Notes: generated from the sequence alone by a model not told the origin. A DNA stretch of 64,000 nt from Clostridia bacterium (GCA_017453725.1 JAFTEJ010000004.1:711-64710), one strand, 5' to 3'; shown: positions 7,537 to 55,751, counted from the first letter of the stretch. Program-made: numbers and translations.

Positions 7537-9906
7537 TTACGCTAATCCGCATTCGGCGCGGAGGGCGATAAGCGCGTCGGCAACGTCAACCTTGCCGTCG
7601 CCGTTGAGGTCGCCGTTCTCAACCGTACCGAGCCCGGCGGCGGCGCGGAGTATCGAAAGCGCGGAGGGCGCTTCCGGTCTCGCGGATTTGACGGGAGCGT
7701 TCGAAAGAAGTTCAACTCCGTCGATGCGTACGACCGCGCCTATAGAGGCGTTGATGAATTCAAGCTTCATGCCCGTCACATTGGCGTCCGGAAGCGCAAA
7801 ACAGAAATTGCCGTCAGAGATTATCGCTCTTTCAACAGTTTCCTCAACTTCACCTTCGGCTGTCGTGAAGGTCAGCTTCACAGCAAATTCACCGGCTGTG
7901 AAATCTGGATAAAGCGTGCTGAAACGGAAGCGTATCGCGCCGTAAGAGCCGGCTGTTTCGGGAAGTTTTGCAAATATTACAGAAGCGTCAGCGGAGCCGC
8001 AGAAAACGTCAAGCGCGCCGTCGTTCAAAGCAATCGCAACGGAAGAAACGCCAAAGGAATCGGCATTCTCGGCAATAATGCCAAACGGTTCAGCTGCCAG
8101 CGGAATCGCGGCAAGCGCATTAATCTTCGCAAGCAGGTCGAGCTTCGCGGCGTATCTGTCAGCCCGCGTAACAGCGGCCTTGTAAGTTTCGAAAGAAGCC
8201 GAGAAATCCGCAAAGCTGGAAGATGTATATTCATATGGATCCTTGCCGTACGCAAGACCCAGGACTTCATAGTAATTCAATCCCGCATCAACTTTGTACG
8301 CATGAATCGAATCGATTTTGAGCGTCGATTTCACGGAGCAGCCGTCCGTCGAAAATCTGAAGGTGTCAAGACCCACTGCGTTTTCAGAGGTTATAGCGGG
8401 CTCGAAGCTCGAGAACGGAAGGAGTATTTCGTTATACTCATTCTTCATATCCTCAGTTACGGTAACGGAGGCGGAGAAGCTGTTCCCCTTCCCGACGCCG
8501 ATGGTAAATTCGTTATCAGCGAATCCGGAGGCGCTGATCACAAATCCGTCATAAGCGGAAAGATCCGTGCTGCCGCCGCTCTTGAGCTTGAACGGAGTCG
8601 CGAGCGGGGTCGTGACCGTGAGGTTGAAGCCCACTTTGGCGTTCGCCATTACTACCAGCGCTCCCTTTGAGACCATCGCGGTCACCGCGGTGTTGTTTGA
8701 AGAAGTGGTGGTAAGAGTTATGCCGTTGACGCTGCTGTTCTTCCTGATATTTGTAAACGACCAGGAGGAGAAGGAGTTAAGATCGGTCACGATATAATCG
8801 TCCGCGAAGGACATCGGCGCGGTATCGAGCGCGAAATCGCGAAGTCCCATTGACGCAGCTATGAACTTCGGAACTTCAATGCTCGCGTGATCCCCGGTGA
8901 ACGCGGAAGCGTTCTTCCCGTAGGTGTAGAGCGCGGAATTCAGCGAGCTGGTTCCGTATCTCTTGAAGCACGAGTTCGTCGTGTTGCCCGAATTGGGACG
9001 GTCGGCAAGCTTAAGCTCGCCCGCCTCGACGTCGCCGACGACCACGAGAAGCGTATCCGGATGCGCGTCAACATACGCCATGGCCGTGCCGACGGCTTCG
9101 TCAAACTTGACGAGTTCATTGACCATACCGGTCATATTTCTCTCAAAGCAATACTTATCGATAAGTCCGCCCTCGGCAACAATGAAGAAGCCGTTATCGT
9201 TATCGAGCAGCTCCGTCGCTTTGGAAAGCATAGCGGAAAGCGTAGGCACCTGATAGCCGGTATCGAAGGAATAATTGCTGAACGCGCCGAAAATCTTTCC
9301 GCCGGGCGTAAGACCGGAAAGCCTGCCGGGCGAAGTGACGTAGTCATATCCGGCGGCGAGCATATCGGCTCTGTAATTATCGAAATACTTTGAACCGCCG
9401 CCGAGGAAAAGATCGATACCGCTGGCGATTTCCTGACGCGCTACGCCGTAAAGATCGGACTTGAGCGGATTATGCACGGCGAAAGCGGCGGGCGTGGCGT
9501 CGTTGAGGTACTTATCGGTGATTATACCGACCTTTTTGCCCGCGTTCCGCATAGCCTCGGTAATAAGCTGAACCTCGTTGCCGTCTTTATCGATGCCGAG
9601 GTTATAGTTCAGCGTCTTTTTGCCGGTGGAAAGCGCAGTCGCGGCAGCCGCCGGATCCGCTATGGCGTTATCCGAGTTTGTCGTGATCAAAGAACCGGAA
9701 TACTCCAGATTCAGCAGGTTGAGCTGCTTTCCGGACTTGATCTTCGCGGCGGTAACGTGCGCCGGACTGATTCCGCTGCCGATGAGCAGAATGACGTTCT
9801 TCGCAGCGAGATCCGCCTGCGGAGCTTCCGCGTATACGCCTATACCCTCAAAGAGCGAAAGCACAAGCGCGAACGCGATGATGATTGAGGCGATTCTTTT
9901 AAGCAT
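7537..9906 (-). CDS. secreted alkaline-phosphatase-fold protein (probably catalytically inactive) with an unassigned ~400-aa C-terminal region and a single dockerin-like repeat
   Basis: AGGAGG RBS. Signal peptide MLKRIASIIIAFALVLSLFEGIGVYAEA. PhoA-like motifs are present but altered: NVILLIGSGIS, ADPAAAATALSTGKKT, NDATPAAFAVH, FFIVAEGGLIDK (see finding). The C-terminus reads DLNGDGKVDVADALIALRAECGLA. Confidence 0.75.
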   Translation of the reverse strand: MLKRIASIIIAFALVLSLFEGIGVYAEAPQADLAAKNVILLIGSGISPAHVTAAKIKSGKQLNLLNLEYSGSLITTNSDNAIADPAAAATALSTGKKTLNYNLGIDKDGNEVQLITEAMRNAGKKVGIITDKYLNDATPAAFAVHNPLKSDLYGVARQEIASGIDLFLGGGSKYFDNYRADMLAAGYDYVTSPGRLSGLTPGGKIFGAFSNYSFDTGYQVPTLSAMLSKATELLDNDNGFFIVAEGGLIDKYCFERNMTGMVNELVKFDEAVGTAMAYVDAHPDTLLVVVGDVEAGELKLADRPNSGNTTNSCFKRYGTSSLNSALYTYGKNASAFTGDHASIEVPKFIAASMGLRDFALDTAPMSFADDYIVTDLNSFSSWSFTNIRKNSSVNGITLTTTSSNNTAVTAMVSKGALVVMANAKVGFNLTVTTPLATPFKLKSGGSTDLSAYDGFVISASGFADNEFTIGVGKGNSFSASVTVTEDMKNEYNEILLPFSSFEPAITSENAVGLDTFRFSTDGCSVKSTLKIDSIHAYKVDAGLNYYEVLGLAYGKDPYEYTSSSFADFSASFETYKAAVTRADRYAAKLDLLAKINALAAIPLAAEPFGIIAENADSFGVSSVAIALNDGALDVFCGSADASVIFAKLPETAGSYGAIRFRFSTLYPDFTAGEFAVKLTFTTAEGEVEETVERAIISDGNFCFALPDANVTGMKLEFINASIGAVVRIDGVELLSNAPVKSARPEAPSALSILRAAAGLGTVENGDLNGDGKVDVADALIALRAECGLA

Positions 9907-10759: not shown

Positions 10760-11679
10760 TATTCCTCGTCCTCCGTCGGTATGTCTATAACAAGCGCGTC
10801 TTCATCGTCCGAAGCCGAAGACGCCTTGTGCTTGCCGCGCTTTTTGATTCGGAAAACTATGATCAGCACAACCGCGGCAATAAACGTTGCGGCGGCTATG
10901 ACCTGAGAAATACGGACGTTTCCGAACAGTATCAGGCTGTCGGTACGCAAGCCTTCGACAAACATACGTTCAAAGCCGTACCAGGCGCAGTACATAAGCG
11001 CGATCTCGCCGTCGAACTTTTTGAGTTTTTTATAGCACAGCCAAAGGACGAGGACTCCGAGCAGACACCAGAGCGATTCATAGAGGAAGGTCGGATGCAC
11101 GGGCTTCGACGAATCAAGGATTATCCCGAAGCGCTCCTTGACGTCCGCCGCTTCGCTGCGGATGTTTTCGGCGATGATGTTGCCGGTCATACCCCACGGC
11201 AAATCCGTATTGACGCCGAAAGCCTCCTGATTGAAGAAGTTGCCCCAGCGTCCGAGCGCCTGTCCGATAAGTATCGCAGGCGCGGCGATGTCCGCAAGCT
11301 TCAGGAACGGCTGCTTTTTTACGCGGCAGTACACGAACGACGCGAGCACGGCGAATATGACTCCGCCGTATATCGCGAGTCCTCCGTTCCAGATATACAG
11401 AATGCTGACGGGGTCCGCGAGATACTGATCCAGTCGGAAAAGCACGTAATACAGCCTTGCTCCGATGAGTCCGAAAACCATGGCGATTATAGCAATGTCG
11501 ATGAACGTATCGCTTTTGAACCCCCGCTTCTTGCCCTGAACGAGCGCATAAACGATTGCCAGCGCGAATCCGAGCATAATGCAGAGCGCGTACCACTTGA
11601 TCTCGATCGAGCCGATCTTGAACGCGGTAGGCGAAACGTTCACCGTTATTCCGAGCTTCGGAAAGCTTATATAGTCCAT
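10759..11679 (-). CDS. lgt: prolipoprotein diacylglyceryl transferase
   Basis: The ORF runs 10759..11706. The ATG at 11679 (MDYISFP) is preceded by GGAGGAG. Motifs IKWYALCIMLGF, GARLYYVLF, GGLAIYGGVI and GRWGNFFNQEAFG are present. The tail is acidic. Confidence 0.9.
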   Translation of the reverse strand: MDYISFPKLGITVNVSPTAFKIGSIEIKWYALCIMLGFALAIVYALVQGKKRGFKSDTFIDIAIIAMVFGLIGARLYYVLFRLDQYLADPVSILYIWNGGLAIYGGVIFAVLASFVYCRVKKQPFLKLADIAAPAILIGQALGRWGNFFNQEAFGVNTDLPWGMTGNIIAENIRSEAADVKERFGIILDSSKPVHPTFLYESLWCLLGVLVLWLCYKKLKKFDGEIALMYCAWYGFERMFVEGLRTDSLILFGNVRISQVIAAATFIAAVVLIIVFRIKKRGKHKASSASDDEDALVIDIPTEDEE

Positions 11680-11724
11680 TATAACTCCTCCGGAGAAAAA
11701 TATCAACTAAAAACTATATGCCGA

Positions 11725-12795
11725 CTAAAATGTGTCTATGATCCGCGCGATATAGCGCATGATAATCAGCACGTCGGAAACGGTTACGACTCCGTCGCCG
11801 TCGACGTCGGCGGCTTTGCGCTGGTTAGTAGTGGGCTTCTTCAAGCCGAGCGAATAGCGAAGCGCGAGGAGCGCGTCCTCGATATCGGTCGCGCCGTCCT
11901 TGTTCGGATCGCCGAGCGTGTACGCCGGAGTCACGACCGGCAGCTTTATATCAGCTATTAGCGGCCAGTGGTCGGACGCTGCCCTGATCGCCTGATCCCT
12001 GACCTGCGCGGTGTAAAGGCAGGTCGCTTCGACGCTGCAGAAGATATGATCGACGCAGCCGGAAATCGGGTTCGGGTCGACGTCGAACAGAACGTTGCTG
12101 TTCGCTATGGTCTGATACGGAACCTCGTCTATGGTGGCGTTCATATCGCCTGTGGAAATAAACGGGCACTTGTTCTTGCTCAGCCACGTCTGCGCTTTTT
12201 TAACGAGCTCTCCCGCCTGAATAGTCCTCTGCGGGGTGTTATCGCCGCCGGAGCCTTCCCAACCGGAATTCAGATGCGTCGAGCTGACAGCAAACTTCCT
12301 TCCGTCGGCTTTATTCTGGAAAAGAGCTATAGCCATGTGGCGCATCTGTATGCTGTTGGAAACGGAGTATTTATAGAGCTCGGTCTTTACAACGTCATAC
12401 TTCGTCTTATCATACAGAAGAAGAGAGCAGTTTTCATCGTCGCCATCGGCCGATATATCGGGAAAGATGAACTCATACTTATCGCCGAGCAGCTCGCGAA
12501 TCGCAATATGCCAAAGCTTGGAGCATTCCTGAAGCCCTATAACGTCCGGCTTATAATAATTCACAAAATCGGCGAAAAGCTGCGGACGGTTGCCAAGCAC
12601 CCACGGACTCCAGCTGAAATCCTCCTGCGCGACGAGCACGTTATACGAAATGATTCGTATATCCGCGCCTTCGACGAGCTGCTCAGGATACGTGCCGACG
12701 TATCCGTCCGCCGCGGCGCTGAATGAAACCGCCGCCGGAAACGCCGTCGCAAGCACGGTCAACGTGAGCAGTAAAGCTGTCAATCTTCTTTTCAT
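11725..12795 (-). CDS. secreted EEP-family (endonuclease/exonuclease/phosphatase) hydrolase with C-terminal dockerin
   Basis: Signal peptide MKRRLTALLLTLTVLATAFPAAVSFSAAA. EEP catalytic motifs are intact: IISYNVL, IGLQEC, VSSTHL, TGDMNAT, ASDHWPL. Dockerin duplicated Ca loops: DPNKDGATDIEDA and DVDGDGVVTVSDV. Confidence 0.75.
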   Translation of the reverse strand: MKRRLTALLLTLTVLATAFPAAVSFSAAADGYVGTYPEQLVEGADIRIISYNVLVAQEDFSWSPWVLGNRPQLFADFVNYYKPDVIGLQECSKLWHIAIRELLGDKYEFIFPDISADGDDENCSLLLYDKTKYDVVKTELYKYSVSNSIQMRHMAIALFQNKADGRKFAVSSTHLNSGWEGSGGDNTPQRTIQAGELVKKAQTWLSKNKCPFISTGDMNATIDEVPYQTIANSNVLFDVDPNPISGCVDHIFCSVEATCLYTAQVRDQAIRAASDHWPLIADIKLPVVTPAYTLGDPNKDGATDIEDALLALRYSLGLKKPTTNQRKAADVDGDGVVTVSDVLIIMRYIARIIDTF

Positions 12796-22440: not shown

Positions 22441-25400
22441 TCATTCAAGTCCCGCAGCCTTGCGGAGAATGTGAAGCGCATCGGAAACGGTGATCTCGCC
22501 GTCGCCGTCAACGTCGGCGGCGGAGAATGTGTTTCCTTCGGGAGCATCGGCAAGTCCGACAGATACGCGAAGAGCTATCAAGGCGTCTCCGACAGTGATT
22601 TCGTCATCGCCGTCGATGTCGCCGGGCGTGTAAAGCGCGGGCATCTCGGTGAGTTTGAAATCGGCGATGAGCGGATAGTGGTCGGAAGTGCCCTGGAGGT
22701 CGGAGTCCGTTACACGCGCGGTGAACAGGCATTCAGTGCCGACGGAATGGAAGATGTGGTCGACAACTCCGGGCGCCGGATGAGCGTCCGCGTCAACGAG
22801 AACGCCGCTGTTCACGATGGTGTTATAGGGAACGTCGCCCGCCGGGCAGTTCATATCGCCGGTGGAAATATAGGGGCAGTTCCACTGAGAGATATACTCT
22901 CTCGCCTTCCTGACGAGCTCGCCCGCCTGGACGTTTCTCTCGTAAGTCTTATCTCCGCCGTCGGAGCCTTCCCAGCCGGGATCGAGGTGCGTGGAGCTGA
23001 CGATGAATCTTCTGCCGTCGCTGATGCGCTCAAAGACGCCGATGTCGATAAGGCGGAATCTCGGACTGTTGCCGATGGTGTAGGAATAGACCTCGCTTGC
23101 GATAACGCGCACCTTGGTCTTATCGTAGATTATCGGGCTGCAGTTCATATCGGCCTGACCGCCGAAGTCGGGGTTGAGGAACTCATAGGTATCGCCGAGA
23201 AGCTGCTTTATACCCTCATGCCATTTCTCAGAGCACTCCTGCAAGCCTACGACGTCGGGCTTGTAGTAATCGATGAAAGCCTTGAACTTGTTGGGTCTGT
23301 CGCCGATGACCCAGGGACTCCAGCTGAAGTCCTCCTGCGCGACAAGCACGTTGAAGGATACGATTCTGATATCGGCGCCGTCAACGAGCTGTTCAGGATA
23401 TTCGCCGTAGTAACCGCTGCCTTCTCTGTGAATAATCTCTACGTCGTCGATATAAATCGCGCTGCCGTCGGGCGCACTGCCCGCGGAGAAGTTGATGTAC
23501 CAGTCGGCGTAATCGCCGCTGTTGAACGCGATAGCGTAGCGTCTCCACTCATCGGTAAGAGCGATGGAGTTCGAGCAAATCTTCTCCTTGTCGCCGAAAA
23601 TGTAGCTGTGATACTGCTTCGTTCCGCCGGAAGCCGAATCCCACTTCGCCCAGAAGACGAGGATGTACTCGGTGTTCTTCGTAAGTATCAGACCGGTCTG
23701 CTTGGCAACGCTCTGATAATAGGTGCTGCCCATAAGGCGGAGCGAATGATCGCCCTCGTGCGCAACGTCGCTGAGAGCGGTGGTGCCGCCGGTGGTCCAG
23801 GGAGAGTAGCCGTTCTCTTCAAATCCGCCGTTTCTGATAAGGATCTCGTCGGGCTTCTCTTCGAGCACGACGTCGTCGATGATCAGAGCGGCTCCGTCGG
23901 GCGAGCTGGACGCCGAGAAGTTGACGTAGCAGGAGGTAACGTCTCCGCTGTTGAAGGAAATGGTGTAGAAGGTCCATTCAGCGGGTATGCCTATATATTC
24001 GCTTACGATTTTAGTGCTGCCCGAGTCATAGACGCCGACGTGATAGCCCTTCGAGCCCTGAGCGTCCGGATCGCCCTTCGCCCAGAAGCAAAGCATATAA
24101 TCGGTGTTGGGCTTGATGGTTATGCCCGTCTGTCTCGCGGCCTTCCCGTATGAACCCGTGGCGAGAAGGCGGAGCGCCTGACTGCCGGCGTGAGCGTCCG
24201 CTGTAAGCGCGGTGCTCTCATAAAGCGTCCAGGGATCTGCAGTCGCGGCTTCAAAGTTGCCGTTCTTGATAAGCGTTGTGTCTGCGAAAACTTCCATAGC
24301 GAAATCGTCAACTACCACGGCGCTGCCGTCGGGCGAGCTGCCGGCTGAAAAATGGATGTAACACTCGGTAAAATCACCGCTGTTGAATCTGACGGTATAG
24401 AGCGTCCATTCGTTTGTTATATCGATGGCCTTATCGGTAAACTTGTTATCCTGTCCGCTGCTTCCGCCGAAAACGTACGCGTGATAAGATTTTGCTCCGG
24501 TGCTGTTCTCGGCAGCCTTCGCCCAGAAGGTGTAGACATAATCCGTATTCGGCTCGATCTTAAGTCCCATCTGTCTGGCGACCTTCGCGTAATAACTGGT
24601 ACCGGAGAGAATCAGCGCCTTGCTTCCGGTGTGAGCGTCTGAGGTTATCGCGCTGCTGCCGAAGATTTCCCACGGATCGACGCTCGTGTTCTCGAAGCCG
24701 GGGTTCTTGATAATGCCGTCGGTGTTTTCCGGCGCGACCTCGAGCAGCACATCGTCAATAAGGATAGCGCCGCCGTCCGGCGAGCTCCCGCAGGAGAAGT
24801 TAACGTAACCGAATGTATACTCGCCGCTGTTGAACTCGAGAGTATAAAGGGTCCAATCATTTGAAATGGTTATGGTGTTGCTCTTGAGCTGGTTATGATA
24901 ATCGCTCCCGCCAACAACATAGGCGTGATAGCCCTTCGAGCCGGGATTATTCGGATCGCCCTTCGCCCAGAACGAAAGGACATAATCGGTGTTTGGCTCG
25001 AAAACTACGTTATTCTGTCTTGCGGCAGAGCCGTAGCTTCCGGTAGAGAGAGCGCGGAGCGCGTAGCTGCCTTCGTGCGCGTCCGTAACGATAGAACTGC
25101 CGCTGTTAATAACCCAAGGATCGGCGTTTCCGGTCTCGAAGCCGCCGTTCTTTATGAGAGCGTCGTCAACCTCTGCAACCGCCTCCATATAGAGATCGTC
25201 GATAACTATCGCGGTGCCGTCGGGCGAGCTGCCGGTGGAGAAATTGATAAAGCAGGATGTGTAGTCACCGCTGTTGAACTCTATGGTGTACTGTCTCCAG
25301 TCGGATGTGGGAGAGAAGGAATTATCCGCAAGCTTATTACTGCCGCTACTGCCGCCGAAAACGTAAGCGTGATAACCCTTCGAGCCGGTGTTGTCGGAAG

Positions 25401-26157
25401 CGGCCTTCGCCCAGAAGGTGAAGACGTAATCGGTGTTCGCCTCGAGAGCGATGTTTTCCTGCCTCGCGACCTTGGTGTAGTTCGAGGAGCCCGAAGGAGC
25501 AAACAGACGCAGCGCCTTGCTGCCTTCGTGCGCTTCGGTCGTCAGCGCGGTTTCGGAATAAATGAGCCACGGATTGATGCTCGAGGCTTCAAATCCGCCG
25601 TTCTTTATCATAGCCGTATCGGGTTCCTCAACCTTAAGAAGAACAGCGTCGTCAATAACGGCAACGCCGCCGTCCGGCGCGCTGGGAGTTGTGAAATTGA
25701 CATAGCATTCGGTAAATTCGCCGCTGTTGAACTCGATGGTATACTGACCCCAGGCAGAGGTTATTCCGAAATACACGTTACCCAGCTTCGTTTTGCCGGT
25801 CGAGTCATAAACGTAGGCGTGGAAGCCTTTGGTGCCGGTAGAATCGGCCGCGCCCTTTGCCCAGAATGTGAAGACATAGTCGGTATTCGCTTCAAGCGCG
25901 ATACCTTCCTGTCTCAGGACCTTCGCGTATTTATCGGCGGCGGAAATGCTCACGGCGCCTGTGCCTGAATGAGCATCGGTCGAAATCGCCGAATCGGCGT
26001 AGATCAGCCAGCCGTCCAAACCGTTTTCAAAACCGCCGTTGACTATCAAATTGTCTTCGGTGGTAGCTGCCGACGCCGGAAAAGCGACGACGTATGACGT
26101 TGCGATCATTGCAAACGCGAGGATCGCGGCAATGATACTCTTGATTCTTGACTTCAT
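22441..26157 (-). CDS. 1238-aa secreted protein: six tandem CBM_4_9-like modules + EEP-family hydrolase + dockerin
   Basis: Signal peptide ending FPASA. Six ~146-150-aa repeats each carry the (I/V)xNGGFE...W...DAH.G...NTDY...FWAK...YH.Y...W..Y...FNSG...SPDG...IDD pattern. The EEP motifs are intact (IVSFNVL, VGLQEC, VSSTHL, TGDMNCP, TSDHYPL). Dockerin loops DIDGDDEITVGDA and DVDGDGEITVSDA. Confidence 0.8.
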   Translation of the reverse strand: MKSRIKSIIAAILAFAMIATSYVVAFPASAATTEDNLIVNGGFENGLDGWLIYADSAISTDAHSGTGAVSISAADKYAKVLRQEGIALEANTDYVFTFWAKGAADSTGTKGFHAYVYDSTGKTKLGNVYFGITSAWGQYTIEFNSGEFTECYVNFTTPSAPDGGVAVIDDAVLLKVEEPDTAMIKNGGFEASSINPWLIYSETALTTEAHEGSKALRLFAPSGSSNYTKVARQENIALEANTDYVFTFWAKAASDNTGSKGYHAYVFGGSSGSNKLADNSFSPTSDWRQYTIEFNSGDYTSCFINFSTGSSPDGTAIVIDDLYMEAVAEVDDALIKNGGFETGNADPWVINSGSSIVTDAHEGSYALRALSTGSYGSAARQNNVVFEPNTDYVLSFWAKGDPNNPGSKGYHAYVVGGSDYHNQLKSNTITISNDWTLYTLEFNSGEYTFGYVNFSCGSSPDGGAILIDDVLLEVAPENTDGIIKNPGFENTSVDPWEIFGSSAITSDAHTGSKALILSGTSYYAKVARQMGLKIEPNTDYVYTFWAKAAENSTGAKSYHAYVFGGSSGQDNKFTDKAIDITNEWTLYTVRFNSGDFTECYIHFSAGSSPDGSAVVVDDFAMEVFADTTLIKNGNFEAATADPWTLYESTALTADAHAGSQALRLLATGSYGKAARQTGITIKPNTDYMLCFWAKGDPDAQGSKGYHVGVYDSGSTKIVSEYIGIPAEWTFYTISFNSGDVTSCYVNFSASSSPDGAALIIDDVVLEEKPDEILIRNGGFEENGYSPWTTGGTTALSDVAHEGDHSLRLMGSTYYQSVAKQTGLILTKNTEYILVFWAKWDSASGGTKQYHSYIFGDKEKICSNSIALTDEWRRYAIAFNSGDYADWYINFSAGSAPDGSAIYIDDVEIIHREGSGYYGEYPEQLVDGADIRIVSFNVLVAQEDFSWSPWVIGDRPNKFKAFIDYYKPDVVGLQECSEKWHEGIKQLLGDTYEFLNPDFGGQADMNCSPIIYDKTKVRVIASEVYSYTIGNSPRFRLIDIGVFERISDGRRFIVSSTHLDPGWEGSDGGDKTYERNVQAGELVRKAREYISQWNCPYISTGDMNCPAGDVPYNTIVNSGVLVDADAHPAPGVVDHIFHSVGTECLFTARVTDSDLQGTSDHYPLIADFKLTEMPALYTPGDIDGDDEITVGDALIALRVSVGLADAPEGNTFSAADVDGDGEITVSDALHILRKAAGLE
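23428..26055 (-). repeat. six tandem coding repeats (~440 nt period) encoding the CBM-like modules
   Basis: I counted residues by hand in the 1238-aa translation. The modules fall at about aa 35-178, 181-329, 331-477, 480-625, 627-768 and 770-910. Confidence 0.75.
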
Positions 26158-26215
26158 TTGATTCCCTCCAAAATTTGAGAATATTTATTAACGCCGACGG
26201 AACGGCAAGAATAAA

Positions 26216-26983
26216 CTAACAACCGCCGAGTACGAAATCGGCAAAAAGCGGCAGATGATCTGACGCGCCGCGCGTGTTCTCGTCATCTACGACCGCGACG
26301 CGAAGCGAACGAACGCCGTCGGTGCGGAAGATGTGATCAACGATATTCGGAAGCGGCGCTTGGTCGGCGTCTGTGAAAACGCCGTTTTGCGTCAAAGCGC
26401 GGTATTCCGGCTTATCAGGCGTTATGTTCATATCTCCGGCGGAGATGAACGGACAACCGTATCCGGCGTTATACCGTTCTGCGGTTTCGATAAGCTCGCC
26501 TATCTGTATCAGCCGCTCCGGGGTTCTGTCGCCCGGATAGTCGGAATCGAGGTGAGTGCTCGAAACTGCGAAGCGCCTTCCGTCGGCGATGCGCTCGAAA
26601 ACCCCGACGTTGACAAGCCGCATACGGTCGCAGTTTGATACGGAATAAACGGCGACTTCACCGGCGACCGGTCTGACTTTGCGCACATTATATATAAGCG
26701 CGGTGTTGACGTAGTCTTTCTCGCCTTTGAAATCGGGGTTGAAAAACTCATATTCGCCGTAAAGCAGCTCGCGGAACGCCGCAAACCAGCCCGTGCTCGC
26801 CTCCTGAAGCCCAACGACGTCGGGAGAATAGTGTCTCAGGCACTCAACCGCGCCGGTCGGACGCTCTCCGAGCGGCGTTCCCCAGTCGTAGTCGTCCGAG
26901 TCGACGAGCAGGTTATACGACATAACGCGGATATCAGCGTCATCGCGGCTCACAAAGCTTCCGACTCTGTCGATATATGACAT
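26216..26983 (-). CDS. EEP-family hydrolase with no signal peptide and no dockerin (cytoplasmic paralogue)
   Basis: 255 aa with a GGAGGTG RBS. Motifs VMSYNLL, VGLQEA, VSSTHL, AGDMNIT and ASDHLPL are present. It is collinear with the EEP domains at 11725..12795 and 22441..26157. Confidence 0.75.
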   Translation of the reverse strand: MSYIDRVGSFVSRDDADIRVMSYNLLVDSDDYDWGTPLGERPTGAVECLRHYSPDVVGLQEASTGWFAAFRELLYGEYEFFNPDFKGEKDYVNTALIYNVRKVRPVAGEVAVYSVSNCDRMRLVNVGVFERIADGRRFAVSSTHLDSDYPGDRTPERLIQIGELIETAERYNAGYGCPFISAGDMNITPDKPEYRALTQNGVFTDADQAPLPNIVDHIFRTDGVRSLRVAVVDDENTRGASDHLPLFADFVLGGC

Positions 26984-27061
26984 TTATCCCGTTTCACCTC
27001 CGCGAACAGATGGACCATAGTCAACTTCATGCGGTTGACAACAGCCGTTCCCTTCGCATTA

Positions 27062-28183
27062 TTATTTGTTCCGCATAAGGTAGTACAGTCCGACGGCAAC
27101 TGCAATGCCGATAAGAACGGCAATGGCAACGCGGAGCGGAGAAATCGGAGACTTTCCGCCAACCTTGCCGGTTTCGCCGTTGACCATAAACTGGAATATC
27201 TTCTCTTTGTATCTGAACGAAGACAACCACACCGGCAAAAGGAGATACTTATACTTAATATCAAAGTACTGTGTCGACATTCTGACGTTGTTGACGTGGT
27301 CGGCGTTATGCGCTCTGCGGACGTTATCCGAAATATCGGATTCGAGCTTTGAGGATATGTAGCCTTTACCCTTCTCCCAAGCGTCGTTAAGTCCGATCGA
27401 GTAGCGCTCTGAAATGAATCCGGCGATGTATTCGGGCTTGTACTTTTTATTATTCTCCGTATCATACGGCTCTATCGAGCGAAGGGCCTTTTCGTCGTAT
27501 CTGTTAGTGCCGCAGACGGGCTGATCGTTTATAAAACAGGAGTAATGCCCGGAGGTATTATACCAGGTTGTGGTGGTATGCGTATTCCCCTCGCTGTCGG
27601 TATACGTATGATCGATGCCGTAGCGCGCGGTATAATCGGTTTCGGTCTGAGAATCGAAGGTCCAGTAAGGCAGATACACGCCCTTGAAGGCGTCCGGACG
27701 CGCGCTCTTCTTCGCCTTGCTCGGGCAGAAGAGCTTTTTCTTTATCCATGCGGTGAATCTTTCGCCCGCGGTCTTCGCGTCGATCCTGAACGGGCATACG
27801 CCGCCGGGAGCGAGCGTATCGACACCCTTTTCCTCCATAACCTGATTGGAGCCGCAGTAGGGACAGACGTCGGCTATCTGAAGCGCGTCGTAAATGGATT
27901 CGCCTCCGCATGATTTGCAGATGACGGTCTTCTTCTCGGCGCCCCAGTCGCAGTTCCCTCTTTCCGCAGCGGAGAAGAAATCCTGCTCCAGACAGCGTTC
28001 ATCGTCCGGATCCTTATGCACTATTTCCTGCTGATGACCGCAGTACGGGCAGAGCAGTCCGCCGGAAACCGGGTCAAAATCCATAGTGCCGCCGCAGGAA
28101 GGACACTTTTTATCCGTCTCTTCCCTGGTGGTTGTTCGCTTGATTTCTTCGTAACCGTTGTTGTAATCGTTGAGTTCGCTCAC
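27062..28183 (-). CDS. double zinc-ribbon protein with a C-terminal transmembrane anchor (function unknown)
   Basis: GTG start 7 nt after GGAGGT. Two CxxC...CxxC pairs (CPSCGG...CPYCGH and CKSCGG...CPYCGS). The only hydrophobic helix is at the extreme C-terminus (VAIAVLIGIAVAVGLYYL). There is no signal peptide. Confidence 0.6.
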   Translation of the reverse strand: MSELNDYNNGYEEIKRTTTREETDKKCPSCGGTMDFDPVSGGLLCPYCGHQQEIVHKDPDDERCLEQDFFSAAERGNCDWGAEKKTVICKSCGGESIYDALQIADVCPYCGSNQVMEEKGVDTLAPGGVCPFRIDAKTAGERFTAWIKKKLFCPSKAKKSARPDAFKGVYLPYWTFDSQTETDYTARYGIDHTYTDSEGNTHTTTTWYNTSGHYSCFINDQPVCGTNRYDEKALRSIEPYDTENNKKYKPEYIAGFISERYSIGLNDAWEKGKGYISSKLESDISDNVRRAHNADHVNNVRMSTQYFDIKYKYLLLPVWLSSFRYKEKIFQFMVNGETGKVGGKSPISPLRVAIAVLIGIAVAVGLYYLMRNK

Positions 28184-37710: not shown

Positions 37711-37752
37711 ATCAACCACCTTACAAGAAGCTATCCGGATGTCAGAGCAAGA

Positions 37753-38499
37753 CTACTCACACCTGCCGTAGATATCGCAGGCTTTATGTATACAGTCGCG
37801 GAGTACAGCGAAATCTTCGTCGGAAATGTTATCGGGCTTGAATGTCGAATCGTGGATCGAACCGCCGGTGACCACCTCAAAGAAGGCGCCGCCGGCAAGA
37901 TACTGCCCCTTGGAGTTAGCGTGGAACCCGTCCTCGCATAGGGTATCGCCGATGGAGGACGCTCTCGCAAGCTGGAACGCCTCGCCGGACGGAACGATAT
38001 GCTTTGCGCCTATCGCGTCTGCGGCGAGATAATACGCTTCCTTGATGCACTTGAACATATAATCCTGATCGCAGTTGAAATCAGGAAAATGCTCGTGGGT
38101 CGAGTCGTGCTGATACGCCCATGTCTGATGAATGATTATTTCGGCGTTCGGAACACGCTTGTGGACATAGTTGTATACGTAATCCAGAAACGGCTGGTAC
38201 GTATTGAAATTTCCGGCAAGACCGCTGACCTGCTGTATGGAAATATGCGTCCAGTCGTCGCTTTCGAGCGCGGTGTTTATATCGCAGGAGCCGTTGCTCT
38301 TTCTGCGGGTGTGCTCGTATCCGTAAACCTCGGCGCCCGCCTCGAAAAAGTTCTTGTGCATTTCCAGACTGCACCCGCCGTAGCAAAGATCGCCCACCTT
38401 AAGCTTCATCGGACTGCTGTCCGCTATGCTCTGCAGGTATGTGTAAGCGTTCCAGGAAAAGCTGTTTCCGATCATCAAAAGTTTTCTTTCTCTCATCAT
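37753..38499 (-). CDS. SGNH-like hydrolase, DUF4886-like
   Basis: 248 aa. N-terminal LLMIGNSFSWNAYTYL (a GDSL/SGNH block-I-like Ser) and C-terminal EDGFHANSKGQYLAGGAFFE (D-x-x-H block), as I recall for DUF4886. There is no signal peptide. Confidence 0.55.
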   Translation of the reverse strand: MMRERKLLMIGNSFSWNAYTYLQSIADSSPMKLKVGDLCYGGCSLEMHKNFFEAGAEVYGYEHTRRKSNGSCDINTALESDDWTHISIQQVSGLAGNFNTYQPFLDYVYNYVHKRVPNAEIIIHQTWAYQHDSTHEHFPDFNCDQDYMFKCIKEAYYLAADAIGAKHIVPSGEAFQLARASSIGDTLCEDGFHANSKGQYLAGGAFFEVVTGGSIHDSTFKPDNISDEDFAVLRDCIHKACDIYGRCE

Positions 38500-50876: not shown

Positions 50877-51584
50877 TTATTTCGCTATTCTCTTTATGAC
50901 CTCGCCCGCCATTATCAGGCCTGCGACCGACGGTACGAACGAAACGCTCGCGGGAGCGGGTCTGCCGCTTTCGCGCTTCTCGCCGTCCGCATCCGGAGCC
51001 TTCGGCTCCTCTTTCGAGTATACGACGGGCAGCGATTTTATGCCGCGCTTTTTCAGCTCATAGCGCATAACGCGGGCGAGCGGACAGACGGAGGTCTTGT
51101 AGATATCCGCGACCTCGAACCGCGTGGGGTCGAGCTTGTTTCCGGCGCCCATACAGCTTATGACCGGAACTCCGGCGGCGTTCGCGCGGCAGATAAGCTC
51201 GATTTTCGACGAGACGGTATCGATGCAGTCGAGAATGAAATCATAGCGGTCGAGCCGGAAGGAATCCGCGTTTTCGGCCGAGTAAAACGCGGTCACGGCC
51301 TCGATCTCCGCCTCGGCGGAAACGCGTTCGGCGCGTTCCTTCATAACCTCGGCTTTGCTTCTGCCTATCGTTCCGCGGTCGGCGACGAGCTGGCGGTTTA
51401 CGTTTGATTCGGCGACGGCGTCGCCGTCAACGAAGGTGAGTCTGCCGACTCCCGCGCGGACGAGCGCCTCGGCGGCGAAGGAGCCTACCCCGCCGACGCC
51501 GAACACGGCGACGGAAGCGTTATTCAGCTTTTTCACCGCGTCGTCGCCGAGCAGCGAACGCGTCCTTATCTGCCAGTCGCTCAT
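50877..51584 (-). CDS. tcdA: tRNA threonylcarbamoyladenosine dehydratase (ThiF/E1-like)
   Basis: 235 aa. VAVFGVGGVGSFAAEALVRAGVGRLTFVDGDAVAESNVNRQ and DCIDTVSSK are as in TcdA/CsdL. Its ATG overlaps the upstream stop (ATGA). Confidence 0.8.
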   Translation of the reverse strand: MSDWQIRTRSLLGDDAVKKLNNASVAVFGVGGVGSFAAEALVRAGVGRLTFVDGDAVAESNVNRQLVADRGTIGRSKAEVMKERAERVSAEAEIEAVTAFYSAENADSFRLDRYDFILDCIDTVSSKIELICRANAAGVPVISCMGAGNKLDPTRFEVADIYKTSVCPLARVMRYELKKRGIKSLPVVYSKEEPKAPDADGEKRESGRPAPASVSFVPSVAGLIMAGEVIKRIAK

Positions 51585-54500
51585 ATTATCCCCGCCGCCT
51601 TTTTCATTATCCGCAGCGCGTCGCTGACGGTGATCGAGCCGTCGGAATCCATATCCGCGACGTCCGCCGCGTCACGCGTCGGCGCGAGCCCGACCGCGAT
51701 ACGCAGCGCGGCGAGCGCGTCGACGACCGTGACTTCGCAGTCGGCGTCTATATCTCCCTCGATGATTTCGTCATACTCGTGGAAACCGCCGAGAAGCTCA
51801 ATCTCCCCTATCTGGAAGCTGCCGGAGCCCGACAGCTCAAGGCGGTAATGCTTATACTCAGCGGGCTCCGCTACCTTGAACGGACGAACGTACTGCGCCC
51901 ACTGATAATCCACACCCTGCTCGCTGATAAGCTCCTTATAGCTTCCGCTTTCGCCGGTTTCGGAGCCGTACAGCTTTATGTTTACAGTCATATTCTGCGT
52001 TCTGCCGGAGGCGACCGTCAGCAACTCGACCTTCTTCGGCTCGGCAAAGGTGAAGTTTACGGTTCCGGTCCCGTTGACCGTCGCGCAGGACGAGGAATTA
52101 TCGACGAAGAGATTTGAGCCGGAGGTGACGCCGCTGTACGTCTTGGCCGCCTCGCCGGTATAATCATCGGCGGTGTTCAGCTTTTCGCGTTTGCCGGTGA
52201 CGGAAGCGAAGTCGCTGCCGACGCCCCAGCAGGATGGCTCGCTGCCCATAACGAAGGTTATCTCCTTCGCCTTCAGCAGGTCATCGTGCGAAATAAAGCA
52301 GTCGTAATACGGAACGCCGTCTATCTTCATAGACTGAATGTAAACGTTATCGGCGCTGTTGTTTTCCGCCGTGACGACGAGGTCGCCGGTCGGCAGGTGC
52401 AGCGTGTATTTCTCATAGAGCGGCGAGGTTATCGCGTACTCGCCGGAGCCCATGTTCAGCGGATAGAAGCCGAGCGCGGTCATAATGTACCACGCGGACA
52501 TCTCGCCGTTGTCCTCGTCTCCGATATAGCCCTGCCCGAACCTGTTGCCGACGAATAAGCGCCCGAGCGCTTCGCGGGTAAGCTCCTGCGTTCTGTAAGG
52601 CTGATCGGCGTAGTTGAACATATAGAGAATGTGGTGCGACGGCTGATTGCTGTGCTGATACTGTCCCATACGCACCTCGCGGGCTTCATACATCTCGTGC
52701 TGCCAGTAATATGACCCGGGCTCCCATCTTGTGGAAGCGCAGAGAAGCTCCTCAAGCTTCGCCGCGAGCCCGTCCTTGCCGCCGTAAAGCCGCGCAAGCC
52801 CGTTGCCGTCCTGCGTTACGGAGAAGGCCGTGCCCCAGCCGTTCGTTTCGATATACCCCTGCGACCAGTCGTAAGGGTTGTACGTATCCGAGTTATAGGA
52901 AAACTCGCCGTATCTGTATTTGACAAAGAAATCGAGCTCGGAGCAGAAGTCGTTCATATAGTCTTTTGCGCGGTCCGAGTAATACTCGTATTCCGCGTCG
53001 AGCCCGAGCGACTTCGCGAGCTGAGCGATGCCGTAATCGTTTATCGCGCTCTCGAGATGCCAGCAGAGGTTGCCGTAATTGTCAACGCCGGCGAAGGGGT
53101 TGACGTTCACGTTCGGACGCCCGAAGTTGCCGGACGCGGGGGTCGAAGCGTTGCGGACGGCGGAAAGGAAGGCTCCTTCCCTGTCGAATTCGATGCCCTT
53201 GACGGCGGCGTCGCCGAAGATGACGTCAGAGCTCGTGCCCGCCATCGCGTTGACCGCGCCGGGATTCAGCCAGCGCCCCACCCATCCGGCGTCGTAATAG
53301 TGAGCGACGAGCCCGTCGAGCAGGTCACCGTCGAGCTCCGGAGTGAGCAGCGCGTAAGCCGCCCAGGCGGTACGGTATGTATCCCAGAAGCCGTTGGTGG
53401 TATATATGGGGCCGTCCTTTCGGACCGGATTATCAAACGCGCTGTGATAAAGGTCGATATGCGCGATCTGCGGCTCGTCGGCGGTGCCGACGTTCTCGCT
53501 CATATTCGTCGGGAAGACGTTGAGTCTGTAAAGGTTGGAGTATAGGGCGACGGTCTCCTCTTCGTTCATTCCCTCGGCTTCAACGACGCCGAGGATCTCG
53601 TTCCAGAGCTCCGCTCCTCTCTCTTTGATGTCCTCGAGCGTATCGGTATCGGCGATCTCGAGGCGCAGGTTTTTCTCCGCCTGCGCGGCGCTCAGATAGG
53701 ACGTCGCAAGGCGCATAACGACCTCGGTCGTGCCCTCCGCAAAGGTCACGGCGCCGATGTCGCGCCCCGAAGCGGTGGTCACGACGCCGCTTGCCGGAGA
53801 CTGATCGAAGCAGCCGTAAAGATACATACGCGGATAGTAGGTGTCAAGCTTCGTCGAGCCGTAATCGATGACGGCGGAAAAACTCCTGCCGCCGTCCGCC
53901 AGCGTAAGCGACCACGACGCCTCCATACCGTCCAGCCCGGTATAAGAGCAGACGGAATCGAGAAGCACGTTTACGTTCGCGGCGTCCGCCGGAAAGGTGA
54001 ATCGCACTATTCCCGCGTGATCGGTCGGCGCGATCTCGACGCGCACTCCGCTCGCGGGAGTTCCCTCGTCAAGCACGACGGAATAGTAGTTCGCGTGGCA
54101 GATCTCGTTATCGCGGCTGAAGGCGCACTTTCTCGAAGCGCAGCTCAGCCCGCCCTTTGAGGGATTGTTCACCGAAGTATTCGGCATAAACATAAACGCG
54201 GCGTAATCGAACAGATGGAAGCTCGCCTGATGCGTTATCATAAAATGCTGTATCGGATACGCCGGATGGTATCTGTAAAGCTCCCTGTGGCCGTCATTGG
54301 TCGAAGGCGTCCAGAGATTGAAGGCGTGCGGAACGCAGACCGCGGGATATGTCAGTCCGCGGTTGGTCTGCGCGGCGCCGTCGTTGCTTCCGCGGCGCGG
54401 GTCGGTGTAGTCGACGAGACTTTCGCACACAAGCGAAGCGCGGTCGCATATCTTCACGTCGTCGATATAGGCGATGGGATTCTTACCGCCTTCGTTGGAG

Positions 54501-55666
54501 GGCTTGTCATAAACGACAACGAGCTTGTCTATCGTCTTGCCCGCCGCCCGGTCGCCGACGCGGGTCTCTATCATATTCCAGTTGCGCGTATAAAGCGCCT
54601 TCGTCTCGCCCTGAGCGCGCGCGGAAATGCCGTGTCTGTTCTGATCGACGGCGCCGAGGTCGCTCAGATACGTCCCGTCGGTAAAGAGCAGGTCGAGCGC
54701 GACGTACTGGCTCGTGTATTCATAGTCGTAGTTATCCTCCGGCTTCGCGTCGGGGATATTCTCAAAATCCGGGAAGATATTGTAGCTGAAATACGTGTTC
54801 TCGGTCACGGGGATCATAAGGTGATCGAAAACGTACGCGTTGGAGTATCCCCTGCCGGCGCCGTTATGCGCGCCGGTCACGCGCATGCAGTGAGTGCCGT
54901 TCCACGGCTCGTTGTTAACGCCGATGAAGGACTCGGCAGGCCCGCCTTCGACGATTTCCGCGAGCAGAGCGCCGGTGGAAAGCGTATTCGCGCCGGAGTT
55001 CTCGCGAAGCGTGAAGTCAGAAAACTGCAGCGTGCCGGAGGTCTCTTCTCCGGCTTTTTTCGTTATTACCATACGGTAATAGCCGTAGTAGCTCTCGTTT
55101 TCAAACGAATACTTCTTCGTCTGCGAGCGCTTCGTGAAGGTCTGCCCCTCGACCGTGTGAAGCACCGTCCATTCTTCGCCGTCGAAGGAGCCCTCGAGCT
55201 TCCAGTCCATAGGCGCGTTGGTGTTGTAGTTGTTGGTGGAGGTGACGGAATAAACGACGCCCTTCGCGGGCTCGCGCATTTTGTAGCTGATGACTATCGG
55301 GAAGGCGGCGTTCGTCATATAGCTTGTAGCGGAGTCGCCGTCCGTGAGGTTCTCCGGAACGCGGGTCGCCGGAGTCGGCGCGGGCGCGGAAACGCTCTCC
55401 ACCATAAGCATCATCCAGTTGTTCGACACGGATGTGTAGACGTTTTCGGCACGCGCGCTGTCGTAGTAACCGCGCATCGGGATGCCGAAGTAGTTTTCGC
55501 CGTTCACGGCGCCCATATCGAATGAAGTGTAAAGCGCCGTATACTCGTTTATCTCCTCCGCGCCGCCCGCGGAAGCTGACGGAACGACCGACGGTATAAA
55601 CGCAAACAGTCCGCCCGCGAGACAAACCGCAAGCAGAACGGCAAGCGCCTTTCTGAAAGTTTTCAT
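51581..55666 (-). CDS. secreted GH92 alpha-mannosidase-like enzyme with N- and C-terminal discoidin (F5/8-C, CBM32-like) modules and a dockerin
   Basis: The listed ORF reaches 55723, but that ATG lies inside the -10 box. The ATG at 55666 (MKTFRKALAVLLAV...) follows AGAGGTG. GH92-type motif GYIGDEDNGEMSAWYIMTALGFYP. Discoidin-like segments PMDWKLEGSFDGEEW and HYRLELSGSGSFQIGEIELLG. Dockerin loops DIDADCEVTVVDA and DMDSDGSITVSDA. Confidence 0.8.
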   Translation of the reverse strand: MKTFRKALAVLLAVCLAGGLFAFIPSVVPSASAGGAEEINEYTALYTSFDMGAVNGENYFGIPMRGYYDSARAENVYTSVSNNWMMLMVESVSAPAPTPATRVPENLTDGDSATSYMTNAAFPIVISYKMREPAKGVVYSVTSTNNYNTNAPMDWKLEGSFDGEEWTVLHTVEGQTFTKRSQTKKYSFENESYYGYYRMVITKKAGEETSGTLQFSDFTLRENSGANTLSTGALLAEIVEGGPAESFIGVNNEPWNGTHCMRVTGAHNGAGRGYSNAYVFDHLMIPVTENTYFSYNIFPDFENIPDAKPEDNYDYEYTSQYVALDLLFTDGTYLSDLGAVDQNRHGISARAQGETKALYTRNWNMIETRVGDRAAGKTIDKLVVVYDKPSNEGGKNPIAYIDDVKICDRASLVCESLVDYTDPRRGSNDGAAQTNRGLTYPAVCVPHAFNLWTPSTNDGHRELYRYHPAYPIQHFMITHQASFHLFDYAAFMFMPNTSVNNPSKGGLSCASRKCAFSRDNEICHANYYSVVLDEGTPASGVRVEIAPTDHAGIVRFTFPADAANVNVLLDSVCSYTGLDGMEASWSLTLADGGRSFSAVIDYGSTKLDTYYPRMYLYGCFDQSPASGVVTTASGRDIGAVTFAEGTTEVVMRLATSYLSAAQAEKNLRLEIADTDTLEDIKERGAELWNEILGVVEAEGMNEEETVALYSNLYRLNVFPTNMSENVGTADEPQIAHIDLYHSAFDNPVRKDGPIYTTNGFWDTYRTAWAAYALLTPELDGDLLDGLVAHYYDAGWVGRWLNPGAVNAMAGTSSDVIFGDAAVKGIEFDREGAFLSAVRNASTPASGNFGRPNVNVNPFAGVDNYGNLCWHLESAINDYGIAQLAKSLGLDAEYEYYSDRAKDYMNDFCSELDFFVKYRYGEFSYNSDTYNPYDWSQGYIETNGWGTAFSVTQDGNGLARLYGGKDGLAAKLEELLCASTRWEPGSYYWQHEMYEAREVRMGQYQHSNQPSHHILYMFNYADQPYRTQELTREALGRLFVGNRFGQGYIGDEDNGEMSAWYIMTALGFYPLNMGSGEYAITSPLYEKYTLHLPTGDLVVTAENNSADNVYIQSMKIDGVPYYDCFISHDDLLKAKEITFVMGSEPSCWGVGSDFASVTGKREKLNTADDYTGEAAKTYSGVTSGSNLFVDNSSSCATVNGTGTVNFTFAEPKKVELLTVASGRTQNMTVNIKLYGSETGESGSYKELISEQGVDYQWAQYVRPFKVAEPAEYKHYRLELSGSGSFQIGEIELLGGFHEYDEIIEGDIDADCEVTVVDALAALRIAVGLAPTRDAADVADMDSDGSITVSDALRIMKKAAGII

Positions 55667-55722
55667 ATCGCACCTCTTTCTATGTAAATGAAAAACTATC
55701 CACAACTTTAATACTACTCTCA

Positions 55723-55751
55723 ATTATACTTTACGGCAATATCGATGTCAA
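55723..55751 (-). promoter_or_regulatory. consensus sigma-A promoter of the GH92-tcdA unit
   Basis: On the minus strand: TTGACA (55751-55746), a 17-nt spacer, TATAAT (55728-55723). Confidence 0.65.

Follow-up and report, generated by a model that had tools for sequence, protein, structure and literature searches.

We analysed a 64,000-nt stretch of a Clostridia bacterium assembly (GCA_017453725.1, JAFTEJ010000004.1:711-64710; GC ~55%), hereafter called the window, which encodes three paralogous hydrolases of the endonuclease/exonuclease/phosphatase (EEP) superfamily. Open reading frame (ORF) listing and translation placed the three genes, EEP_A, EEP_B and EEP_C, on the minus strand at exactly the coordinates given in an initial annotation made from the DNA alone, and tblastn revealed no further EEP copy in the 64 kb. 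The span under which that annotation had filed them, 22441-26983, holds only two of the three genes, since EEP_A lies 9.6 kb off. In the following list, CBM stands for carbohydrate-binding module and AF2 for AlphaFold2.

11725..12795, minus strand: EEP_A, a secreted EEP hydrolase of 356 aa with a type I dockerin at its C-terminal end (ORF, translation, Pfam PF03372 and PF00404).
12709..12795, minus strand: signal peptide of EEP_A, about aa 1-29, MKRRLTALLLTLTVLATAFPAAVSFSAAA (hydrophobic N-terminus; cleavage site placed by eye).
11968..12648, minus strand: catalytic domain of EEP_A, aa 50-276 (Pfam PF03372, profile positions 2-225 of 225).
11749..11916, minus strand: dockerin of EEP_A, aa 294-349 (Pfam Dockerin_1, E 6.5e-11; two D-x-D/N-x-D-G calcium-binding repeats).
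22441..26157, minus strand: EEP_B, a 1238-aa secreted protein with six CBMs, an EEP domain and a dockerin (ORF, translation, Pfam).
26068..26157, minus strand: signal peptide of EEP_B, about aa 1-30, ending in AFPASA (Kyte-Doolittle maximum 2.35).
23392..26049, minus strand: six tandem CBM_4_9-type modules of EEP_B, aa 37-922, 144-151 aa each (Pfam, fold match).
22678..23358, minus strand: catalytic domain of EEP_B, aa 934-1160 (Pfam PF03372, 30.7 bits).
22468..22626, minus strand: dockerin of EEP_B, aa 1178-1230 (Pfam Dockerin_1, 26.8 bits).
26216..26983, minus strand: EEP_C, a 255-aa leaderless EEP hydrolase (ORF, translation, Pfam, AF2, Foldseek).
26255-26923, minus strand: catalytic domain of EEP_C, aa 21-243 (Pfam PF03372).

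Exo_endo_phos (PF03372) was assigned to all three proteins above its cut-off of 24.5 bits, with 39.1 bits for EEP_A (E 8.9e-10), 30.7 for EEP_B and 52.8 for EEP_C, in which it is the only Pfam family. Dockerin_1 (PF00404; cut-off 22.9 bits) was found in EEP_A at 42.7 bits and in EEP_B at 26.8 bits, in both cases with duplicated D-x-D/N-x-D-G segments. The N-termini of EEP_A and EEP_B are hydrophobic (Kyte-Doolittle 15-mer maxima of 2.16 and 2.35) and end in AxA-like sites. The Pfam assignments and the hydropathy scan bear out the architectures initially described, namely a signal peptide and a dockerin on EEP_A, six CBM-like modules, an EEP domain and a dockerin on EEP_B, and neither signal peptide nor dockerin on EEP_C. 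EEP_A and EEP_B, which had been described as very similar, share 57% identity over 324 aa, dockerin included, and EEP_C is 45-47% identical to each of them. EEP_B is 100% identical to P0023 (NCBI MBQ9557011.1), which comes from a Clostridia metagenome-assembled genome (MAG) and carries the generic public label 'carbohydrate binding domain-containing protein'.

The catalytic signature that had been read in all three paralogues proved intact, as N24, E61, H144, D184, N186, D216, D242 and H243 (EEP_C numbering) are invariant in 18-20 aligned relatives. H217 is also invariant in the 18-sequence alignment, and Tyr or Phe stands in its place in three more distant relatives among the 20. The motifs of the clade align with NxL, QE, THL, GDxN and SDH of nocturnin and of BVU_0621 from Bacteroides vulgatus, and its VDH motif aligns with LDY and IDF of these two proteins. 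The three EEP domains are acidic, with isoelectric points of 4.6-4.9. In a neighbour-joining tree the window copies formed one clade with the topology ((A,B),C), sister to a clade of anchored EEP proteins and of proteins in which CBMs, an EEP domain and a carbohydrate esterase family 2 (CE2) domain are joined; the catalytic residues are retained in all branches. EEP_A, EEP_B and EEP_C are recent paralogues in a Clostridia-restricted clade of the Mg2+-dependent EEP superfamily.

The AF2 model of EEP_C (pLDDT 88, pTM 0.89) has the four-layer alpha/beta-sandwich fold of EEP enzymes. Foldseek gave 198 PDB matches to this model at E <= 0.001, and the 50 listed are all EEP structures, with TM-scores of ~0.7; the Foldseek probability was 1.00. 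The top match was 4C1R, a structure of the mannose-6-phosphatase BT3783 from Bacteroides thetaiotaomicron (8.4e-16), and 3MPR (BT3783) and 3G6S (BVU_0621) were also among the leading ones. Nocturnin, TDP2 and CNOT6L came next, nocturnin and TDP2 within about two orders of magnitude of BT3783. A profile of the clade was then run against all PDB sequences, the scores standing in for a phylogeny with the characterised EEP subfamilies:

BVU_0621 (3g6s): 2.9e-21, whole domain.
Nocturnin: 5e-18.
BT3783 (3mpr and 4c1r): 1e-16 and 2e-16.
PDE12: 6e-13.
TDP2: 4e-10.
Staphylococcus aureus beta-hemolysin: 2e-8, profile positions 154-269 only (the C-terminal half).
Exonuclease III: 3e-4.
Sphingomyelinase C: 4e-3.

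ANGEL2 was also among the neighbours of the clade profile, and DNase I, APE1 and CdtB gave no match in the same search. Grouping with classical non-specific DNases or sphingomyelinases, an outcome named beforehand as contradicting a glycan-linked substrate, was not found in the PDB profile scores. None of the three EEP proteins was assigned to a family by NCBIfam, in which the ExeM/NucH model (NF033681; cut-off 300 bits) reached 26.6 bits (E 2.7e-6) and 18.2 bits, and Pfam detected neither lamin-tail-domain (LTD) nor OB-fold modules in them.

The fusion partners of related EEP domains are informative. Two Acutalibacteraceae MAGs (L002 and L004) and a goat-caecum MAG (L005) encode two to three CBM_4_9 modules, an EEP domain and a CE2_N/GDSL carbohydrate esterase in one polypeptide, which in L005 continues after the CE2 part with Big_3 and choline-binding repeats. 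This gene adjoins one for a CBM-CE2 esterase and a second, stand-alone EEP gene in L002 and L004, and a DUF4886 gene lies near it in L002. CE2 enzymes remove acetyl groups, and their only known role is to take ester decorations off polysaccharides. Since the EEP domain is covalently fused to such an esterase, it may likewise act on a polysaccharide decoration, and of the arguments for this the fusion is the strongest available. The fusion partners in the 77 best representatives were dockerin (4), CBM_4_9 (3), CE2_N with GDSL (3) and F5/8-type C (2) domains, together with choline-binding repeats, MucBP and GH20b-like domains, and no nucleic-acid-binding domain was among those above threshold.

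The immediate subfamily is small, forming 21 clusters (E <= 1e-5) in a set of 5.8 billion proteins, and the wider family comprises 327 representatives at 1e-30 and 4089 at 1e-10 in an exhaustive profile search. A hydrophobic N-terminal segment was present in 83% of the 166 members inspected and a lipobox in 62 of these 166. Many members of the wider family are lipoproteins of ~580 aa with two N-terminal alpha/beta domains, and ~10% of the family appears genuinely leaderless. The nearest related loci are in ruminant-gut Clostridia and Acutalibacteraceae MAGs. The exhaustive search also returned two lipoproteins, P0022 (1108 aa) and P0024 (3270 aa), that string together three to seven EEP domains in tandem.

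The six modules of EEP_B matched CBM_4_9 (PF02018) with 247.8 bits (E 4.3e-74) in six stretches and are 38-59% identical to one another. A profile built from them matched the CBM16 modules of ManA at 3e-9, and an AF2 model (pLDDT 74) matched CBM16, CBM4, CBM61 and CBM22 structures with a Foldseek probability of 1.00, in line with a beta-sandwich fold. Eight dockerin-bearing genes were detected in the 64 kb by tblastn, encoding the two secreted EEP proteins, four large glycoside hydrolase family 16 (GH16) proteins, a GH92 protein and an alkaline-phosphatase-family protein, in which the dockerin-like copy is partial. Apart from this copy and the dockerins of EEP_A and EEP_B, six full dockerin copies were counted in the window. 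No cohesin was found in a search confined to the window.

The EEP genes belong to an array bounded by a promoter-like site (38579-38551) and a strong terminator (7518-7484). Its genes are all minus-strand and no more than 85 nt apart, and the promoter/terminator scan found no strong terminator between the two sites. The order is a DUF4886 gene, two genes for the large GH16 proteins, a zinc-ribbon gene, EEP_C and EEP_B, followed by two more of the large genes, EEP_A, lgt, folD and the gene for the secreted alkaline-phosphatase-family protein. The array partners and the GH92 gene are listed here (LRR, leucine-rich repeat).

37753..38499, minus strand: leaderless DUF4886 protein, first gene of the array (Pfam E 2.1e-68; PDB 4i8i, 'hypothetical protein', 3e-40).
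28216-32967 and 33019-37719, minus strand: two GH16-WD40-LRR-dockerin paralogues upstream of EEP_C (Pfam; dockerins confirmed by tblastn).
12834-17549 and 17601-22355, minus strand: two paralogous genes between EEP_A and EEP_B, products of ~1575 aa with RicinB, GH16, WD40 propeller, BspA-LRR and dockerin (Pfam).
7537..9906, minus strand: 789-aa secreted alkaline-phosphatase-family protein at the end of the array (Pfam PF00245, E 1.4e-38).
51581..55723, minus strand: secreted GH92 alpha-mannosidase-family protein with a C-terminal dockerin (Pfam GH92, E 6e-116; dockerin by tblastn at 51587-51757, E 1e-16).

The four GH16 proteins are secreted, 1566-1584 aa long, and consist of an N-terminal region without assignment followed by RicinB, GH16, a WD40 propeller, BspA-type LRRs and the dockerin; the GH16 motif EIDLME is intact in the one that was read, 28216-32967. 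Their architecture is unusual for a bacterial glycoside hydrolase and recurs in two other MAGs, at 40-80% identity. Synteny was found in a water-buffalo rumen MAG (L001), with large GH16 genes, the zinc-ribbon gene (86% identity), EEP_C (68%), a CBM-EEP gene (60%) and again large GH16 genes, and in GCA_016648615.1, with a CBM-EEP gene, two large GH16 genes, EEP_A-dockerin, Lgt, FolD and the alkaline phosphatase. The alkaline-phosphatase-family protein has a signal peptide, ~450 aa of C-terminal sequence without assignment and a dockerin-like tail (tblastn, 7543-7665), and its orthologue in GCA_016648615.1 is 937 aa long and has a CBM_4_9 module. It reads NDATPAA at the nucleophile region, where the Escherichia coli enzyme presumably has DSAASAT, so that its nucleophile may differ from that of E. 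coli alkaline phosphatase. The GNSFS and DGFH motifs of the DUF4886 protein suggest an SGNH-type esterase. The GH92 protein contains ~420 aa of N-terminal and ~150 aa of C-terminal sequence without assignment; its signal-peptide-like sequence starts at Met20, and the listed start codon, a TTG, probably lies upstream of the true one. A promoter-like site (11706-11678, 11/12 match) lies at the start of lgt (ORF 10759-11706, minus strand). Because the listed TTG of lgt coincides with the -35 hexamer of this site, lgt probably begins further downstream, and a separate transcription unit may comprise lgt, folD and the alkaline phosphatase gene.

Upstream of the array, 38723-46159 on the minus strand encodes a protein of 2478 aa. 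Its N-terminal region resembles a glycosyltransferase and contains a DxD motif (LALDADT); together with several hydrophobic segments the protein has a 'Glycoamylase' domain, a pair of GH94 supersandwich domains and the catalytic domain of GH94. In this layout it is similar to cyclic beta-1,2-glucan synthases, enzymes not expected in a Clostridia MAG, and the gene has its own strong terminator (38707-38676).

We propose that EEP_A and EEP_B, displayed through their dockerins, are Mg2+-dependent phosphoesterases whose targets are the phosphate mono- or diester decorations of extracellular glycans or glycopolymers, and that they work alongside the GH16, GH92 and alkaline phosphatase proteins. We give this proposal an even chance of being correct. 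The two proteins would be exported and attached through their type I dockerins to a cohesin-bearing surface scaffold, and the six CBM4/9/16-type modules would steer EEP_B to its polysaccharide. Candidate substrates are phosphomannan-type glycans of fungal or yeast walls, or phosphodiester-linked polymers of bacterial walls or capsules. Removal of the decorations would let the four dockerin-tagged GH16 proteins and the dockerin-tagged GH92 protein proceed, and phosphate would be released jointly with the dockerin-tagged alkaline phosphatase. In the catalytic steps, for which the canonical mechanism of the superfamily is assumed here, Glu61 and Asn24 would hold Mg2+, His243 of the SDH motif would activate the attacking water, and Asp184, Asn186 and His144 would position and stabilise the phosphate.

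We infer the substrate class, the cooperation with neighbouring enzymes and the docking to cohesins. For the substrate class the support is circumstantial and comes from the closest solved relatives, the CBM-EEP-CE2 fusions, the CBM_4_9 module on the alkaline phosphatase orthologue and the dockerin-tagged GH92 protein in the window. This evidence favours a glycan-linked phosphate over DNA without proving it. The preference for such a substrate expressed in the initial annotation is thus retained on the strength of relatives, fusions and neighbours, and the substrate itself is a matter of interpretation. The same annotation pointed out that Bacteroides EEP-type sugar phosphatases are paired with GH92 mannosidases, which the literature confirms: BT3783 and BT2630 were assayed for phosphate release from phosphorylated sugars, and BT3783 was also tested alongside the GH92 enzyme BT2629, the substrate being a high-mannose N-glycan in phosphorylated form (Cuskin et al. 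2015, PMC4978465).

Several observations weigh against our proposal. The profile scores of BT3783 and of nocturnin, PDE12 and TDP2 are only a few orders of magnitude apart, at ~20% identity, and the latter three, which are near structural neighbours, have nucleotide or nucleic-acid substrates. Among the EEP lipoproteins of Bacteroides, BT3563 acts as an extracellular DNase (PMC8851478). The GH92 gene does not belong to the co-directional array and is separated from the EEP genes by 25 kb, and neither GH76 nor GH125 was seen in the window, the array partners being GH16 proteins. The array also holds the housekeeping genes lgt and folD and the widely conserved zinc-ribbon gene; since these are of the housekeeping type, co-location is weak evidence of a shared function. 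At 18 Clostridia loci of more distant family members, the 54 proteins encoded next to the EEP genes are heterogeneous and of housekeeping character, with neither glycan nor nucleic-acid functions enriched among them, and so inform on neither reading. In a distant relative with 23% identity (L079) the EEP domain is joined with RicinB and a weak, sub-threshold match to LTD, a domain of the kind found in secreted nucleases. The EEP_B modules are of CBM type by homology, so that their binding to carbohydrate, like the activity of the three EEP copies, is predicted. The specificity of EEP enzymes cannot be read from the sequence, and for this reason a DNase or phosphate-scavenging role is possible.

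The L079 relatives are two genes, L079:1053-4514 and L079:7049-10777, each with RicinB repeats, the sub-threshold LTD match and a C-terminal EEP domain, and one of them also with an N-terminal dockerin. They may represent a nuclease-like branch of the wider family.

The secreted copies could instead be extracellular nucleases or nucleotide phosphodiesterases that work with the alkaline phosphatase in scavenging phosphate and nucleosides from extracellular DNA or RNA, or in remodelling a biofilm matrix, the CBMs being a mere tether. We regard this explanation as unlikely, if far from negligible. The EEP superfamily is rich in nucleases, and the profile neighbours nocturnin, PDE12, TDP2 and ANGEL2, the proven DNase activity of the secreted BT3563 (PMC8851478) and the LTD match in L079 fit a nuclease. 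The absence of LTD, OB-fold or any other reported nucleic-acid-binding domain from the clade and its 77 closest representatives does not, and neither does the recruitment of CE2 and CBMs as EEP fusion partners. The weak match to ExeM/NucH could be read in favour of a nuclease but is far below its cut-off, DNase I and APE1 were unmatched by the clade profile, and exonuclease III was matched weakly. The acidity of the EEP domains, as calculated, would count weakly against DNA binding. An alkaline phosphatase at the end of the same co-directional array would suit nucleotide scavenging, whereas the CBM_4_9 module on its orthologue points back to polysaccharide. An activity like that of sphingomyelinases or phospholipase C, directed at phospholipid or lipoteichoic-acid head groups of microbes or host membranes, seems highly improbable. 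It is suggested by the profile matches to beta-hemolysin and sphingomyelinase C and by the choline-binding repeats on one relative. However, the sphingomyelinase-type matches extend over no more than the C-terminal half of the profile, with scores far lower than those of BT3783, BVU_0621 and nocturnin, the repeats are more simply explained as a cell-wall anchor that replaces the dockerin, and the fusion to CBMs and CE2 points to a polysaccharide rather than a lipid.

EEP_C is best explained as descending from a paralogue that was originally anchored at the surface. Its N-terminal Kyte-Doolittle maximum is 0.19, and no hydrophobic stretch is present anywhere in the protein. The ATG at 26983 is preceded by a GGAGGTG ribosome-binding site, and the start cannot be further upstream because an in-frame TAA lies directly upstream of it. 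When the 78-nt spacer upstream of EEP_C was read, no relic of a membrane anchor was found in any frame, and a 171-aa ORF over the EEP_C start (26950-27465) was rejected as spurious, being of low complexity, without a family match and overlapping the conserved zinc-ribbon gene. The orthologues P0004-P0009 and that of L001 (66-69% identity) have a conserved N-terminal transmembrane helix, whose flanking charges suggest an N-in, C-out orientation with the catalytic domain facing outward. The leaderless form recurs in P0001 and P0002 (88-89% identity to EEP_C) and in P0011.

The initial annotation had suggested that the copy without a leader processes imported phospho-sugars. A cytoplasmic phosphatase for phospho-sugars or phospho-oligosaccharides, taken up after the secreted copies have acted, would agree with the intact catalytic residues, the well-supported start and the missing signal peptide, and an intracellular role is possible since leaderless forms recur in P0001, P0002, P0011 and ~10% of the wider family. 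The suggestion nevertheless fared poorly, and we consider it improbable: the close orthologues are anchored with the predicted outward orientation, the stand-alone EEP protein of L002, its equivalent there, combines a signal peptide and a Thr-rich linker with a membrane anchor at the C-terminus, EEP_C is nested within an otherwise exported clade in the tree, and no transporter, kinase or phosphotransferase system component was found in the window. Its upstream neighbour, the zinc-ribbon protein, is likewise of a widely conserved housekeeping type. This protein (27062-28183, minus strand; 373 aa) has two N-terminal zinc ribbons and one transmembrane helix at its C-terminal end, as in tail-anchored proteins. 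It has 2908 homologues in Clostridia, the best 120 of which are 56-88% identical. A specific partnership with EEP_C was rejected on account of its membership of a very widespread and slowly evolving Clostridia family, and the adjacency is probably incidental, as is that of lgt and folD to EEP_A.

Glycosidases acting on yeast or fungal mannans, on N-glycans and on many bacterial surface polymers are blocked by phosphate decorations, and BT3783 and BT2630 are the only biochemically characterised glycan-phosphate EEP enzymes that we found in the literature. If EEP_A and EEP_B hydrolyse glycan phosphate, this activity extends to the dockerin-based enzyme systems of Gram-positive gut or rumen bacteria, a new type of accessory module is added to the classification of carbohydrate-active enzymes, and a handle is gained on the bacterial use of phosphorylated microbial and fungal glycans and on phosphate recovery. 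If they are nucleases, the result is an ordinary one, phosphate scavenging by dockerin-displayed enzymes. A broader proposition, tentative and somewhat doubtful, is that the clade represents an unrecognised class of carbohydrate-active phosphoesterase module. Such a module, fused to CE2 esterases or presented by a complex resembling a cellulosome, would strip phosphate mono- or diesters alongside acetyl groups from hexose polymers, with phosphomannan of fungi or yeasts and phosphodiester-linked wall glycans of microbes as candidates, and would bring a new auxiliary activity to polysaccharide degradation by Gram-positive gut bacteria.

The kind of enzyme is known, as EEP phosphoesterases include the glycan-phosphate precedent. 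No dockerin- or CBM-linked EEP enzyme was found described in the literature, including the architecture of six CBMs, EEP and dockerin and that of CBM, EEP and CE2. BT3783 and BT2630, encoded in the yeast-mannan polysaccharide utilization loci (PULs) of B. thetaiotaomicron, have the superfamily, the fold and all catalytic positions in common with the clade, and like the secreted copies they are extracytoplasmic and encoded near glycoside hydrolases; these include GH92, which in the window lies 25 kb off. BT3783 is, however, only ~20% identical to the clade, and the construct described for it (mature residues 27-314) contains neither CBM nor dockerin. The clade for its part is Gram-positive and dockerin-displayed, with six CBMs on one copy and CE2 fused to relatives, and has no Sus-type PUL and no adjacent GH92 gene. 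BVU_0621 (3G6S), a single-domain protein, is the best profile match of the solved structures and aligns in every motif, but adds no functional information because it is uncharacterised. The CCR4/nocturnin/PDE12/TDP2 branch gives the next-best profile and fold matches and differs in being eukaryotic and intracellular, with nucleotide or nucleic-acid substrates and without export signals, CBMs or dockerins. Within this branch nocturnin is a phosphomonoesterase acting on NADP(H), and the title of PDB entry 6NF0 reads 'with bound NADPH substrate'. BT3563 (compared here by its description) and the ExeM/NucH/Xds nucleases are, like EEP_A and EEP_B, secreted or surface-exposed bacterial EEP proteins. 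The ExeM/NucH/Xds enzymes carry LTD or OB modules, an architecture established for ExeM and Xds, which the clade lacks. Plant SEX4 and LSF2 are CBM-bearing glucan phosphatases with a dual-specificity-phosphatase fold rather than an EEP fold, and offer a functional analogy only. In the CBM-CE2 esterases a decoration-removing enzyme is tethered to its polysaccharide by CBMs, which is the same logic as in EEP_B, and it is this CE2 domain that is physically fused to the EEP clade in L002, L004 and L005.

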